A stretch of DNA of 64,000 nt from Gaiellaceae bacterium. GTDB taxonomy: Bacteria > Actinomycetota > Thermoleophilia > Gaiellales > Gaiellaceae. The stretch lies in assembly GCA_046594445.1 (NCBI GenBank), contig JBKJSM010000075.1:23819-87818 (forward strand), read 5' to 3'. This document shows, one piece after another, positions 10,633 to 60,091 of the stretch. The notes below the pieces were generated by a model. It had not been told where the DNA came from, did not search any database, and saw only the letters and a program-made list of their open reading frames with translations. The stretch's first letter is position 1. Each line of letters starts with the position of its first letter. A program made the translations under genes and the position numbers.

Positions 10633-11823
10633 GCGCCGCCCTCGTAGCGGGCGCGGCGCCGAGCACGGCTGCGAGCGAGTCGCCCCGCCGCACGACCGCC
10701 ACGGCGACGCCGGCGGCCTGAACGCGGAGGAGCTCCGGCTCGACGCGGGTCGGCCGACCCGCGAAGCTCGGCGCGTCGATCCAGACGAGGCTGACGCCCT
10801 GCGCGGCAAGCGAGCGATGGACGAGCTTCGTCGCGAGCACGTCGGAGAGGCGCGCAGTCACGACGACCGTCTCGAAAGCGCGCGCAGCCGGCCCGCTCTC
10901 GCGCGCGAGCAGGTCCACGACCGGGCGGGTCCCGTCCGGCTCGGCCGCAGCGAGTAGCCCGAGCGCCGCGAGCCAGTCGCCGTCCAGCGAGGAGACGCGG
11001 ATCGCCGGTCGCTCGGCCGAGTTGACGGCGAGCACTGCGCGGCGCCCGCGCGCGGCGTGCGCTCGCAGAATCGAGCCGGCCGCACGCACCTGGACGTCGA
11101 AGCTCTCGCCGGTGACGGCTGCAGGATCGGCGTCGAGGAGCACGGCGATCTCGTCTCTCGGCGCGTCCTCGAGCTCCTTCACCATCAGCTGCCCGCGGCG
11201 CGCAGTCGAGCGCCAGTGCACCTTGCGCAGTGACTCGCCCTGCTCGTAGTCGCGCACCGAGTGGAGGTCGAAGCCCGACGGGCGGCGCAGCAGCAGGTGG
11301 CGGCCGTCCTGAGCGTGCGCCCCGCTCTCCGAGAAGAGGCGGTCGAGCGCGACGAGGCGCGGATAGACGAGCAGCGAGCCGCCGGTCTCGAGCGCGACCT
11401 CGGCCCGCGCGAGCCCGAAGGGGTCGTCGATCGTCGCCCGTGCCTGCTCGACGACGTAGCGGCCCCGCGGCAGGCGCTCGAGCACGTAGGTGCCGCGGTG
11501 GAGCCGGCCGGACCGGCTCAGGTGCGTCTCGCGCTCGCCGAGCCGGCCGAGCCGCTCCAAGACGGCGAGCGCCGGAAGCGGCATCCGCGACTCGGGCTTG
11601 GCCTCGAGCGTCACCCAGACGTCGTCGCCCTCGAGCAGCGCGCCTCGGCCCGCGCGCCGCCGTAGGACGATCGGCCCGGCGGCGAGCCGGACCCAGGCTC
11701 GAGCGGCGAGCGGCGCGAGCACGAGCCCGGTTGCGACCGGGTAGAGCGCCTTCGCGCCGAAGAGCCACGCGATCACATAGGTGGCGACCCCGAGCAGCAG
11801 GGTGAGCTTGCCGCGCCGCGTCA

Positions 11824-11824
<1 letters not shown>
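10625..11824 (-). CDS. DUF58 domain protein
   Basis: 399 aa. N-terminal TM pair and the motif ...LRKVHWRSTARRGQLMVKELED. Canonical partner of MoxR ATPases. Confidence 0.85.
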
Positions 11825-12786
<962 letters not shown>

Positions 12787-12950
12787 AGTGTCTCCTGAGG
12801 TGATGTTGCCCTGTTCCTGACGAGCGAAAAGCAAGCCAGGCTAGGACGCAGGGAGCGGCCGTAGCTGCTGCTACGGCCGCGACTGAGGACGACGCATGGC
12901 GCCGCTTTGCAGCCGTAAGGGACAGAGATGACATTGCCTCAGGAGACACT
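12787..12950 (-). repeat. structured intercistronic element, copy A (coaBC|moxR)
   Basis: 14-bp perfect inverted arms (12787-12800 and 12937-12950). Core AGGACGCAGGGAGC (12843-12856), a 9-bp hairpin (12857-12878), then GCGACTGAGGACG (12879-12891). Both core blocks are identical to those at 19936-19983. Confidence 0.8.
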
Positions 12951-14126
12951 TCGCTCCGCCAGCAGGCGCTCGATCTCGTCGACGATGCCCACGGCGATCT
13001 GCTCCTTGGGCGCGCGCTCGAGCAGCCGGTCGCCGGCCTGGGTCAGCAACGTCACCTCGTTGTCGGGCGCGTCGAAGCCGATCCCGGACGCGCTCACGTC
13101 GTTGTAGACGACGAGATCGAGGCGCTTGTCGGCCAGCATCCGCCGCTTGCGCTCCAGCCCCGCCTGCCCCGTCTCGGCGCCGAAGCCGACGAGCACCTGC
13201 CCGTTGCGCTCGCCCTCGCCGAGCCGGGCTAGCACGTCCGCGGTCGGCTCGAGCCTCAGGTTCCAGTCCTCCCCGGTCTTGGCCCGCTTCCCTTCGACCG
13301 GATCGGCAGCGCGGTAGTCGGCCACGGCCGCGGCCATCACGATCACGTCCGCCGCGCCGGCCCGGCCGGTCGCCTCGCGCTCGAGGTCGGCGGCGCTCGG
13401 CGTCTCCACGATCTCGACCCCCGCGGGCGGCGGGACGGCCAGATTCGACGCGAGCAGCGTCACCTCGGCGCCTCGGCGGCGCGCCTCTGCCGCGACGGCG
13501 ACCCCCATCCGTCCCGACGAGCGGTTGCCGAGAAAGCGGACAGCGTCGATCGGCTCGCGGGTTCCGCCGGCGCTGACGAGCACGCTCAGGCCCGCGAGCG
13601 GACTTTGTGTTTCAGGAACACTTTCTCTCAAGAGCGCTTCGATCCGGGCGGCGATCGCCGCCGGCTCGGTCATGCGGCCGGTGCCGACCTCTCCTTCGGC
13701 GAGCTCGCCGGACTCCGGGCCGATCAGCTCTACCCCGCGGGCGCGCAATAGCGCGGCGTTCGCCTGCGTCGCCTCGTGCTCCCACATCCGAGTGTTCATC
13801 GCGGGGGCCACGAGCATAGGGCCGCGGTGAGCGAGCGCGGCCTCGGTGAGCACGCCGTCCGCGAGCCCGTGCGCCAGCTTCGCGAGCGTGTTCGCCGTCA
13901 ACGGCGCGATCACGAGCAGCTCGGCCCGCTCCAGGTGTGGGTATGGATCGACACTCTGCGGCTTGCGCGCGAGCGCGAAGAAGGTTTCGGCGCGGACGAA
14001 GCGCTCCGCGCCGGCCGTCGGCAGCGGCAGGACGTCGTGGCCGGCCGTGACGAGCAGCCGCACGAGCTCGCAGGCCTTGTAGGCCGCGATGCCGCCGGTG
14101 ATCCCGAGCAGGATGCGTGCCATCAC
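12939..14126 (-). CDS. coaBC: bifunctional phosphopantothenoylcysteine decarboxylase / phosphopantothenate-cysteine ligase
   Basis: 395 aa: ILLGITGGIAAYKA..., PAMN..MW, and the C-terminal CoaB domain. Follows rpoZ as in other actinobacteria. Confidence 0.93.
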   Translation of the reverse strand: MMARILLGITGGIAAYKACELVRLLVTAGHDVLPLPTAGAERFVRAETFFALARKPQSVDPYPHLERAELLVIAPLTANTLAKLAHGLADGVLTEAALAHRGPMLVAPAMNTRMWEHEATQANAALLRARGVELIGPESGELAEGEVGTGRMTEPAAIAARIEALLRESVPETQSPLAGLSVLVSAGGTREPIDAVRFLGNRSSGRMGVAVAAEARRRGAEVTLLASNLAVPPPAGVEIVETPSAADLEREATGRAGAADVIVMAAAVADYRAADPVEGKRAKTGEDWNLRLEPTADVLARLGEGERNGQVLVGFGAETGQAGLERKRRMLADKRLDLVVYNDVSASGIGFDAPDNEVTLLTQAGDRLLERAPKEQIAVGIVDEIERLLAERSVS

Positions 14127-16935: not shown

Positions 16936-19876
<2,941 letters not shown>

Positions 19877-20047
19877 CGGTGTGCGCCTCCTGGTGACGTT
19901 GCCGCGGCGCTCGCGGTCGGAAAGCGAGCGAGCCAAGGACGCAGGGAGCCCCCATGCTGGTAGCACGGGGGCGACTGAGGACGCCGGATCGCGAAGTCTT
20001 TCCGGGCGCGAGCGACTCGGAGGACGTCGTCAGGAGGCGCACTTAAC
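19877..20047 (-). repeat. structured intercistronic element, copy B (carA|carB)
   Basis: Arms 19881-19892 and 20031-20042 are 12 bp perfect, then a 2-nt internal loop, then 5 more bp. Core blocks 19936-19949 and 19971-19983 are identical to copy A. The central hairpin 19950-19970 has a different sequence, with a G-U pair only on the minus strand. Confidence 0.8.
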
Positions 20048-28949: not shown

Positions 28950-29022
28950 GCGCCCGTAGCTCAGGGGATAGAGCGCACGCCTCCGGAGCGTGAGGTCGGA
29001 GGTTCGAATCCTCCCGGGCGCA
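28950..29022 (+). tRNA. tRNA-Arg (anticodon CCG)
   Basis: Manual cloverleaf: acceptor GCGCCCG/CGGGCGC, D arm GCTC/GAGC, anticodon stem CACGC/GCGTG with loop CUCCGGA, T arm GGAGG-TTCGAAT-CCTCC, discriminator A. Confidence 0.92.
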
Positions 29023-35986: not shown

Positions 35987-36059
35987 GCGGGTGTAGCTCA
36001 GTTGGTAGAGCATCAGCTTCCCAAGCTGAGGGTCGTGGGTTCGAGTCCCATCGCCCGCT
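35987..36059 (+). tRNA. tRNA-Gly (anticodon CCC)
   Basis: Manual cloverleaf: acceptor GCGGGTG/CGCCCGC (one G-U pair), D arm GCTC/GAGC, anticodon stem TCAGC/GCTGA with loop UUCCCAA, T arm GTGGG-TTCGAGT-CCCAT. Confidence 0.9.
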
Positions 36060-58244: not shown

Positions 58245-60091
58245 CCCGCCCCGGTCTTGTGGAGCTGCGCGTAGATCGCCCGGGCGGTTTTCGCCGGCAG
58301 CCCCGGGACGCCCTCGAGCTCCTCCTGGCTCGCACCGATCACGCGCTCCGTCGAGCCGAAGTGCCGGAGCAGCGCCCGGCGGCGCGCAGGCCCGACGCCC
58401 TCGAGCGTGTCGAAGAGCGACTCGCGCGCGCGGGCCGAGCGCCGCTGGCGGTGGAAGCCGAGCGCGAAACGGTGCGCTTCATCCCTAACACGTTGGAGAA
58501 GCTGCAAGCCGGCGCTGTGCGAATCGAGCAGGATCGGCAGCGGCTCGCCCGGCAGGAACACCTCCTCGATCCGCTTCGCGAGCGAGATCACGGCGACGCG
58601 CGGGAGCTCGTACGCCTGCATCGCCGCGAGAGCGGCGGAGAGCTGGCCCTTGCCGCCGTCGATCACGACGAGGTTCGGCGCCGTCGCGAAGCCCTCGTCG
58701 TACTCGTCCTCGACCCCGGTGCGCAGGCGCGCGAACCGCCGCGAGACAACCTCGGCCATCGCGGCGAAATCGTCCTGCCCGTCGAGCCCGCGCACCCCGA
58801 ACTTCCGGTAGTGCGCCTTCTTCGGGATCCCGTCCTGGAACACGACCATGGAGCCAACGATCTCCTGTCCCTGGATGTTCGAGATGTCGAAGCACTCGAT
58901 CCGCAGCGGCAGGCTCTCCAGGTTCAGCGCCTCGCGCAGCTCCTCGAGCGCGTGCACGCGGCGGAGTTGCTTCTGCTCGGAGACGAGCGTCTCGGAGTCG
59001 AGCGCCAGGCGCGCGTTCTGTGCGGCCAGCTCCGCGAGCCGCCGCTTCTCGCCCCGAACCGGAGCCCGCACCTCGACGCGTGAGCCGCGCAGCTCGCTGA
59101 GGAACTGCTCGAGCGCCTCCAGCCCGGTCGCCTCGGTGGGCACGACGATCTGCGGCGGGATCGAAGGTGCGTTCCCGTAGTACTCCAGCACGAACGCCTC
59201 CAGGATCGCCGTCACGTTCTCGCCCTCGACGTTCTCGAGGTGGAAGCCGTGCCGGTCGACCATCTTGCCGCCGCGGAGCGGGAACACTTGCACCGCTGCG
59301 CGGTCTCCGGCGGCGGCGATCCCGATCACGTCGATCGACCCGGTCTCGCCGCGGTCGGCGCCCTGCTTCTGGGCCAGGTTCTCGATTGCGAACAGCCGGT
59401 TGCGGTAGCGAGCGGCGTCCTCGAAGCGCTCCTCCACAGCGGCCTCGCGCATCTGCCGCTGCAACTCGCGCACGATCGTCTTCGTGTCGCCGGAGAGGAA
59501 GTTGATCACGCTCTCGACGATCTCCCCGTAGGCCTCCTTCGAGATGTAGCCCACGCACGGCGCGTGGCAGCGCTCGATGTGGAAGTCAAGGCAGGGGATG
59601 CCCGAGTGCCGGCCCGGCTTCGGGCCTTCGCAGGGGCGGAACTGGAAGACACGGTTGAGCACGTCGAGGGTCTCTCGCACCTTCTTCGCGTTCGCGTACG
59701 GCCCGAAGTAGAGGACGCCGCGGCGGTGCCGCTCCCGCGTGAACATCACGCGCGGGTACTCGTCGCCGATCGTGACGCAGATGTAGGGGAACGACTTGTC
59801 GTCGCGTAGGCGGACGTTGAACGGGGGCCGGTGGCGCTTGACGAGGTTCTGCTCCAGATGGAGCGCCTCGACCTCGGTCGAGGTGACGATCACCTCCAGG
59901 TCGGCGATCCGCGGCACCATGCGCGGGATCGACGAGCGCGTGTCGCTGCTCCCCGACTGGAAGTACGAGCGCACGCGCGGCCGCAGCGACTTTGCCTTGC
60001 CGACGTACAGCACGTCGCCGCGCTCGTCGCGGAAGAGATAGACGCCCGGCTTGGCCGGCAGTCCCTTCAGCTTGTCTCGAACGTCGGCCAC
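58241..60091 (-). CDS. uvrC: excinuclease ABC subunit C
   Basis: From GTG 60091: VADVRDKLKGLPAKPGVYLFRDERGDVLYVGKAKSLRPRVRSYF (GIY-YIG). UVR domain, RNase H-like domain, and C-terminal (HhH)2. Confidence 0.95.
   Translation of the reverse strand: MADVRDKLKGLPAKPGVYLFRDERGDVLYVGKAKSLRPRVRSYFQSGSSDTRSSIPRMVPRIADLEVIVTSTEVEALHLEQNLVKRHRPPFNVRLRDDKSFPYICVTIGDEYPRVMFTRERHRRGVLYFGPYANAKKVRETLDVLNRVFQFRPCEGPKPGRHSGIPCLDFHIERCHAPCVGYISKEAYGEIVESVINFLSGDTKTIVRELQRQMREAAVEERFEDAARYRNRLFAIENLAQKQGADRGETGSIDVIGIAAAGDRAAVQVFPLRGGKMVDRHGFHLENVEGENVTAILEAFVLEYYGNAPSIPPQIVVPTEATGLEALEQFLSELRGSRVEVRAPVRGEKRRLAELAAQNARLALDSETLVSEQKQLRRVHALEELREALNLESLPLRIECFDISNIQGQEIVGSMVVFQDGIPKKAHYRKFGVRGLDGQDDFAAMAEVVSRRFARLRTGVEDEYDEGFATAPNLVVIDGGKGQLSAALAAMQAYELPRVAVISLAKRIEEVFLPGEPLPILLDSHSAGLQLLQRVRDEAHRFALGFHRQRRSARARESLFDTLEGVGPARRRALLRHFGSTERVIGASQEELEGVPGLPAKTARAIYAQLHKTGAG

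Follow-up and report, generated by a model that had tools for sequence, protein, structure and literature searches.

At the junction of coaBC and moxR in the 64,000-nt stretch analysed here (contig JBKJSM010000075.1, positions 23,819 to 87,818, of the Gaiellaceae bacterium assembly GCA_046594445.1; hereafter the window), the two genes are linked by a 164-nt palindromic element, termed copy A, which raises the question of whether it is a device that controls moxR or a piece of DNA that came to lie between two adjoining genes. All coordinates are window positions, and copy A, a second copy at the carA/carB junction (copy B) and the genes flanking both are read on the minus strand. Copy A is probably one insertion of a non-autonomous, Thermoleophilia-specific, palindromic interspersed repeat of about 165 nt, similar to the MIRUs (mycobacterial interspersed repetitive units, reportedly described by Supply et al. 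in 1997), with the coupling of the neighbouring genes kept by an open reading frame (ORF) that runs through the element, referred to as the relay ORF. The repeat family is new and, apparently, undescribed; the kind of element is already known. The insertion at the moxR start, the through frame of 58 codons and the lower stability of the mRNA-sense strand go beyond the original prediction, a note made on this locus from its letters.

The 395-aa ORF upstream of copy A was identified with Pfam as CoaBC (DFP and Flavoprotein) and the ORF downstream as a MoxR-type AAA_3 ATPase. On the minus strand, AGTGTCTCCTGAGG at 12950-12937 comprises the final coaBC codons and the TGA (12939-12937), and CCTCAGGAGACACT at 12800-12787 is its perfect 14-bp complement and adjoins the moxR GTG (12786), in full agreement with the original prediction, which had the coaBC stop region pairing over 14 nt with an arm that carries the AGGAG Shine-Dalgarno (SD) sequence of moxR and abuts its start codon. 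A repeat search gave arms of 20 nt with 90% complementarity (12787-12806 / 12931-12950) and a central hairpin, foreseen as a perfect helix with a 4-nt loop, of 11 bp (12855-12865 / 12870-12880). Folded with RNAfold, the segment 12780-12960(-) forms a single rod with a minimum free energy (MFE) of -90.6 kcal/mol (z = -6.75; 0/200 shuffles fold as well), and the imperfect inward pairings that had been drawn by eye are all present in the MFE structure. The pyrimidine-rich blocks GTCCTCAGTCGC and GCTCCCTGCGTCCT, said to recur in a second copy, occur exactly at 12879-12890/12843-12856 and at 19971-19982/19936-19949 and nowhere else in the window.

A covariance model (R1) was built on 27 curated long-form copies of the repeat and in the window returned only copies A (12784-12952, 164.5 bits) and B (19877-20045, 135.1 bits) as real copies. 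Copy B is flanked by ORFs identified as CarA and CarB (Pfam) and folds like copy A (-103.5 kcal/mol, z = -6.71). Its outer helix, formed by the carA stop region GTGCGCCTCCTG-A and the carB SD CAGGAGGCGCAC, is unlike that of copy A in sequence, and as in copy A its 3' strand carries an AGGAG/AGGAGG-type SD next to the downstream gene's start codon. The features of both copies are collected in Table 1.

Table 1. Features of copies A and B and of an unoccupied junction in the window.
Feature	Position	Strand	Basis
Copy A of the palindromic repeat, 164 nt, coaBC/moxR junction	12787..12950	(-)	Covariance-model match, rod fold
Outer helix of copy A, 5' strand AGUGUCUCCUGAGG, including the present coaBC stop TGA 12937-12939	12937..12950	(-)	Strand read, RNAfold, repeat search
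Outer helix of copy A, 3' strand CCUCAGGAGACACU, carrying the AGGAG SD of moxR	12787..12800	(-)	Strand read, RNAfold, repeat search
Present moxR start GTG, immediately 3' of copy A	12784..12786	(-)	tblastn against relatives starts at residue 1; Pfam AAA_3
5' core block GUCCUCAGUCGC, invariant	12879..12890	(-)	No variation in 117 aligned copies
Central hairpin, 11 bp, loop AGCA; sequence varies and covaries family-wide	12855..12880	(-)	Repeat search, alignment A4
3' core block GCUCCCUGCGUCCU, invariant	12843..12856	(-)	Exact occurrences and 117-copy alignment
Relay ORF A, 58 codons, GTG 12949-12947 to TAG 12775-12773, spanning the whole rod	12773..12949	(-)	Stop-free translation
Copy B of the repeat, carA/carB junction	19881..20043	(-)	Covariance-model match, fold
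Relay ORF B, 59 codons, GTG 20042-20040 to TAA 19865-19863	19863..20042	(-)	Translation
Unoccupied TAGTG stop/start overlap, moxR 3' junction	11822..11826	(-)	Comparison with relatives

Filled and empty junctions

The window MoxR was used to fetch 80 related metagenome loci, of which 62 have coaBC immediately upstream of moxR (MoxR identity 92-62%). The two genes abut or overlap in 62/62, and no element was found with R1 at the coaBC/moxR junction in any of these 62 related loci, the junction being filled in one locus (the window) and empty in 62. Empty sites read GAGCGAC followed by GTGGAAGCGCGTAG, and the window reads GAGCGA(AGTG...164 nt...CACT)GTGGAAGCCAGTAG, the element being given in parentheses. 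When the closest empty sites, ...GAGGAGCGAC GTGGAAGCGCGTAG (L122) and ...GAGGAGCGAA ATGGCCGTTCGTAG (L121), are set beside the window junction, ...GCGGAGCGA(AGTGTCTCC...GGAGACACT)GTGGAAGCCAGTAG, the window turns out to have gained a net 163 nt, precisely at the start codon of moxR. It follows from L121 and L122 that the ancestral coaBC ran 14 nt into moxR and ended at TAG, and from the gain at the start codon that CoaBC now ends early, at a TGA internal to the element. The C-termini of CoaBC (ending in ERSVS) and of CarA (ending in VKCAS) are element-encoded (12937-12950 and 20030-20042 (-)), and since both proteins end differently in relatives without the element, the insertions have remodelled them. 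Judged from these sequence comparisons, copy A is a recent, lineage-specific insertion and not a conserved regulator of moxR.

Similar patterns were obtained at other junctions. The carA/carB junction is empty in L201 and L203 (CarA 83% identical), where carA overlaps carB by 11 nt (ATGCCGCGTAG); it is filled in L202 by an orthologous element (138.6 bits) whose relay frame ends in TGATG, and in L093 it holds another subfamily. Between the genes for S13 and S11 the element is present in L110 (TGATG...element...TGATG) and missing from L013 (TAAATG) and L099, with S11 being 92-95% identical, and at rpmJ/S13 the pattern of filled and empty sites is reversed. The junction at the 3' end of moxR is empty in the window, L121 and L122 and filled in L142 (133.7 bits) and L135, so that the TAGTG of the window at this position is an unoccupied target-like site. 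Upstream of gmk, the junction is filled only in L143 and L156.

A stop-free frame through the rod

On the mRNA-sense strand, relay ORF A overlaps the end of coaBC and the start of moxR. Relative to L121 and L122, its GTG occupies the old moxR start position, behind the old GGAG, and the frame leaves the element in the old coaBC frame, its stop being the ancestral coaBC TAG. The ancestral geometry, in which the upstream frame ended 14 nt inside moxR, is thus rebuilt by the start and stop positions of relay ORF A. Relay ORF B likewise overlaps both neighbours, at the carA stop TGA (20030-20032) and at the carB start ATG (19874-19876), and it stops at the point where carA ends at the empty sites.

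Frames of this kind recur throughout the intercistronic subfamilies, in which a frame of 53-59 codons is stop-free across the rod, starts at a GTG or ATG that overlaps or abuts the upstream stop (TAGTG, TAAGTG, TGATG) and runs to a stop overlapping the start that follows (TGATG, TAATG, TAGTG, TAGATG, or GTGA/ATGA); 16 relay stops share a base with the next start. Among copies with a 5'-terminal start, 30/45 have an open linking frame, as against 27/90 for the two remaining frames. Both ends are in phase in 21 of the 25 copies with recognisable junctions at both ends, and all 21 of these are open. Six different combinations of arm and hairpin length total the same 158 nt, a constant sum that suggests compensating indels. 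Stop triplets number 194 on the sense strand vs 317 on the antisense strand. As a separate observation, the relay frame in L142:3403-3571 and L012:4414-4582 has no terminal stop and continues in frame into the downstream gene, to which it would add an N-terminal extension of ~54 aa.

On the account that we favour, insertion of a repeat that brings its own relay frame, the element would be tolerated in operons because its mRNA-sense linking frame between the two ends is free of stops. Ribosomes would initiate at the GTG or ATG that overlaps or abuts the upstream stop (for copy A, at the former moxR start site, served by its former SD), would unwind the rod as they translate 53-59 codons through it, and would end at a stop that overlaps the start downstream (TGATG, TAATG, TAGTG), which for copy A is the stop once used by coaBC, 14 nt within moxR. 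Since the relay would end at its start, the downstream gene would still be translated by termination-reinitiation. The outer helix is the terminal inverted repeat of the element and contains a good SD by chance in copies A and B; because the SD lies in the helix, independent initiation on moxR and carB would probably be silenced for as long as no ribosome, whether on coaBC/carA or on the relay frame, has opened it.

That the frame itself encodes a small protein of ~55 aa, repeated as a true gene in many operons, is barely credible. Open frames of 53-59 codons with starts and stops coupled to the neighbours are what such a gene would have, but the relay peptides are not conserved: the core is read in all three frames by different copies, the 3' half changes frame from one subfamily to another, and the whole sequence is a nucleotide palindrome. 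G+C at codon positions 1, 2 and 3 is flat in the relay frames (0.69/0.66/0.69), with no codon bias and no rise at the third position, and the real genes of these genomes are strongly G+C-rich there. The small-protein explanation was rejected because the relay peptides gave no Pfam or NCBIfam match.

Extent, core and placement of the family

The species-representative genome collection was scanned for both core blocks, exact and spaced 14-34 nt apart, which yielded at least 120 exact-core stretches; among the matches listed, essentially all came from metagenome-assembled genomes labelled Gaiellaceae, Solirubrobacterales, Thermoleophilaceae, Thermoleophilia or unclassified Actinomycetota, the sole exception being a 3-kb contig binned as Acidobacteriota. 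The core pattern had no match in viral contigs. When R1 was applied to the fetched loci, further copies unseen by the exact pattern were recovered, mostly differing by a single A->G that preserves the CAG/CUG helix as G.U, and 4 copies were found in 344 kb of loci fetched for an unrelated purpose; the extra R1 copies therefore point to a density of ~1 copy per 50-100 kb. Rfam 15 gave no match to the element at gathering or relaxed E-value thresholds, the best sub-threshold match being a plant miRNA precursor (20.8 bits vs a threshold of 268), and no account of these repeats was found in the literature on repeats in Thermoleophilia, Gaiella, Solirubrobacter and Conexibacter. The suggestion in the original prediction of a Correia- or MIRU-like intercistronic repeat is thus borne out by the copy number, the filled and empty orthologous sites and the lack of a described Rfam family.

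RNAalifold on the raw MAFFT alignment of 117 copies gave the core only, and a curated subset and a covariance-model alignment were used instead. In the covariance-model alignment of 104 copies, 85.2% of cells form standard pairs vs 32-43% for slid partners, 45/54 pairs show changes on both sides, and the covariation score is 0.48 vs at most 0.084 in the slid controls. A curated MAFFT alignment that had not been fitted to the structure gave 79.8% paired vs 36-45%, with both-side changes in 41/54 pairs. All 11 pairs of the outer helix covary (87.6% paired family-wide), as do those of the central hairpin (helix 10 of alignment A4; 94.6% paired, 6/6 pairs changed on both sides). Such covariation would arise equally in an RNA, in a DNA strand that folds and in inverted repeats, and is alone no proof of RNA function.

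The core itself is unchanging and reads GGCG / UCCU bulge / CAG / UC / GC, the variable hairpin, and GC / UCC / CUG / CGUC, that is, three short invariant helices with pyrimidine-only loops between them; the A->G change in the CAG/CUG helix was the only variant of the 5' core block found by the model. It is asymmetric and invariant across Gaiellales, Solirubrobacterales and Thermoleophilales, and the termini vary, being unlike between copies even inside one genome. The idea that the inner CCUCAG competes for the stop-codon arm is accordingly unsupported, because the arm of copy B has no CUGAGG and the sequence of helix 1 differs in nearly every copy.

Several variants were seen beside the typical form. 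At L013:1691-1859 (+), upstream of rpsM, typical arms (TAAATGCTCCTCCCAGCGATAC...CATCACCGGAAGGAGCACTAAC) enclose a wholly different centre without the invariant core, and the wider family therefore exceeds the reach of the core pattern. Upstream of gmk, the copy at L143:136-304 (+) has UC/UCC replaced by self-complementary GGCC/GGCC, which closes the internal loop, and that at L156:81-248 (+) has a variant core (GTCGC -> GTCCC). A short form of ~100 nt with the same core and shorter arms occurs in Solirubrobacterales (L002, L008, L019, L022, L025, L026 and other exact-core loci); its central hairpin is near-constant (TCGCGTGC-AGAG-CACGCCAC), and in L019 two short-form copies are adjacent, the one adjacent pair seen.

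Gene orientation around the copies was called using a codon-usage model trained on carB, carA, coaBC and moxR of the window. The upstream gene is co-oriented with the element in 55 cases vs 10, and unambiguous tandem contexts number 27 vs 6. In co-oriented copies the upstream stop precedes the first paired base by 4-5 nt in 28/55 and is within 17 nt of it in 50/55, and the downstream start lies 3-6 nt past the last paired base in about half of 47 copies. Where neighbours are convergent, the stop of the other gene is found at the same distance from the 3' terminus in 17/21. Across the copies, TA occurs no more than 7 nt beyond the helix in 62% on the left side and in 53% on the right, vs a background of 6%. 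The flanking genes are ordinary and diverse, comprising 206 Pfam families in 132 ORFs, including ATP synthase, L2, S4, S11, S13 and CarA/CarB. Three copies were observed within 8 kb of a ribosomal-protein region in L110 (1294-2037 and 6852-7022 (-)), two of them flanking rpsK (S11).

Explanations compared

The junction might work by RNA unfolding alone, the rod sequestering the downstream SD and start until a terminating upstream ribosome opens it and the interior remaining untranslated. RNA unfolding is an accepted mechanism of translational coupling (PMC12548453), and, as in the E. coli rpmI-rplT and MS2 coat-lysis systems, the upstream ribosome would open the structure at the ribosome-binding site in copies A and B, where the upstream stop lies inside the 5' strand and the 3' strand has AGGAG/AGGAGG beside the start. 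Judged from its usual footprint, a ribosome holding the coaBC TGA in its A site would occupy all of the 5' strand of the outer helix, leaving the moxR SD and GTG free, and family-wide the rod brings stop and start near each other in space, one at each foot. Those systems, however, are unique and locus-specific, whereas the present element is portable and has its own through frame. Unfolding leaves the stop-free, phase-keeping frame and the overlaps of its stops with the next starts unexplained; the stop-at-terminus geometry is shared by opposite-strand genes that converge on the element, the hairpin is weaker in the sense RNA than in the antisense, and the junction works element-free in 62 relatives. 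An SD core is present in the 3' arm of only 10/25 intercistronic copies, and among the 55 co-oriented cases the upstream stop is inside the helix only in copies A and B, lying mostly just outside it elsewhere. For these reasons pure unfolding is regarded as possible but unlikely, and of the earlier proposal that the helix hides the moxR SD until it is opened by a ribosome terminating on coaBC, the part that concerns copies A and B is plausible, as a copy-specific extra, and the general rule does not hold.

A host cis-regulatory or processing RNA motif, either protein-binding or an RNase III-type site that separates cistrons, and kept for its function without being mobile, would agree with the invariance of the asymmetric core across three orders, with the strong bias towards the sense orientation and with the copies in ribosomal-protein, ATP synthase and pyrimidine operons. 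Such a motif is nonetheless very unlikely, given that at five junctions the site is filled in one lineage and empty in close relatives, that the flanking genes are unrelated, that the covariation is not specific to the RNA sense strand and that Rfam holds no match. A transcription terminator or attenuator hairpin is highly improbable: the rod is long and G+C-rich, and one subfamily, with termini TAGGAGGG...CCCTCCTAG, frequently separates genes that converge, but there is no U tract, a start codon follows directly 3' of the rod, a promoter/terminator scan of 12600-13100 gave no site, terminator-like or other, and copies A and B and those in ribosomal-protein regions lie inside operons that need downstream expression. 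Also considered was a role of the invariant core as the recognition site of a dedicated, class-wide factor (RAYT-like, or a new enzyme acting on single-stranded DNA or RNA) that moves the element to stop/start overlaps, the rod then being a domesticated operon spacer that is read through or shunted across. This is quite unlikely to be right; were it so, Thermoleophilia would have in the element a portable module by which the translational coupling of operons for ribosomal proteins and biosynthesis is set.

Several observations weigh against the favoured account, a mobile repeat with a relay frame. The sense strand folds less stably than the antisense strand (mean MFE -87.3 vs -111.4 kcal/mol; weaker in 97/100 copies, by 24; copy A, -90.6 vs -103.9), and G.U is not favoured over A.C on the sense strand (98 vs 89; 204 vs 349); selection for pairing in the mRNA is therefore not demonstrated. 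The copies share ancestry, so that the frame statistics make them look more independent than they are. Direct repeats at the insertion sites (GTG in copy A, TGATG in L110, TAGTG in L003) overlap the palindromic termini, and since termini such as CACTAGTG are palindromic, a target-site duplication is inseparable from the inverted repeat. No transposase or autonomous partner recurs among the 132 flanking ORFs, which belong to housekeeping families. Lastly, that the relay frame is translated, and that the helix has any effect, is what we infer from sequence. The weaker sense hairpin may mean that only the orientation with the weaker, stop-free transcript survives in operons, or that it is the other strand that must fold, for example as a transposition intermediate.

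When compared with known systems, the element belongs to none of the MIRU, Correia and ERIC families; its behaviour is that of MIRUs and its anatomy that of miniature inverted-repeat transposable elements (MITEs). MIRUs are described as mobile, as inserted at start codons and as having an internal ORF coupled to the gene (PMC12548453; PMC3184786), and MITEs typically form long RNA stem-loops (PMC3184786). With MIRUs the present element shares its small size and place within operons, insertion at start codons, filled and empty orthologous sites, and a repeat ORF that overlaps the upstream stop and the downstream start with coupling kept. MIRUs differ in being 40-100 bp long, often in tandem arrays (variable number tandem repeats), in occurring in Mycobacterium and in forming no single long rod, whereas the present element is ~165 nt long, almost always single, a full-length imperfect palindrome with an invariant asymmetric core, and found in Thermoleophilia; MIRUs were compared here by their described features. 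Like MITEs, the copies are multiple and dispersed, contain no transposase gene or protein-family match, bear terminal inverted repeats (in copy A the perfect 14-bp outer helix) and occupy sites that are empty in orthologous loci, but their termini differ from copy to copy, and no transposase that could mark an autonomous insertion sequence recurs among the 132 flanking ORFs.

The Correia elements (CREE/NEMIS) of Neisseria and other MITEs are also non-autonomous repeats of 100-200 bp with terminal inverted repeats, co-transcribed with their neighbours and forming long RNA hairpins; the frequent TA-containing termini of the present family are a further point of likeness. Theirs, however, are conserved, transposase-matching termini, and MITEs normally have conserved termini and variable interiors, whereas here the termini vary and the interior core is conserved, a further point against the favoured account. 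Cleavage by RNase III has been shown for Correia elements, and we know of no relay ORF described in them. ERIC/IRU of enterobacteria are alike in being imperfect palindromes (~127 bp) of transcribed intergenic operon regions with a conserved centre and unlike in sequence and taxon; to our knowledge neither a stop/start overlap nor a through frame has been reported for ERIC. REPIN/REP elements (RAYT, Y1/HUH) share long hairpins of two imperfectly complementary halves, conserved asymmetries that form bulges, apparent long-term inheritance within a lineage and strand-asymmetric folding, but REP units are 20-40 bp, have GTAG/CGTC heads and are extragenic and not at start codons, unlike the single 165-nt rod that abuts stop and start codons here; no RAYT gene was seen, no search aimed at one having been made.

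If the insertion and its relay frame are read correctly, selfish DNA can inhabit the most densely packed and strongly expressed operons (those for ribosomal proteins, ATP synthase and the synthesis of pyrimidines and CoA) and leave them working, by bringing its own stop-free relay frame and restoring a stop/start overlap at the far end. The MIRU strategy would then have been invented twice, independently, the second time in another class and with another anatomy, and each genome would supply dozens of natural test cases for termination-reinitiation and for how ribosomes unwind very stable hairpins. The elements are prone to be mis-annotated as hypothetical genes of ~55 aa, and they lengthen or truncate adjoining ORFs, as at CoaBC and CarA, which in the window end within the element. 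In a poorly cultured soil lineage they serve well to mark recent changes in the genome. That the core is invariant and the termini variable hints at movement by a mechanism other than the one used by classical MITEs.

A few minor observations remain. A subfamily with termini cTAGGAGGGTTTGGCGAAA...TTCCGCCAAACCCTCCTAG (e.g. L018, L059, L120) often lies between convergent genes, in both orientations; its termini form the TAG stops of both genes and there is usually no through frame, and it may be a gene-end or terminator-type element. In the window, the stretch at 59865-59994 (+) that scored 18.6 bits (E = 0.007) with R1 was set aside as coding sequence without the core blocks. Two tRNA genes, at 28950-29022 and 35987-36059 (+), were the only Rfam matches at gathering level in the window (72 and 69.6 bits).

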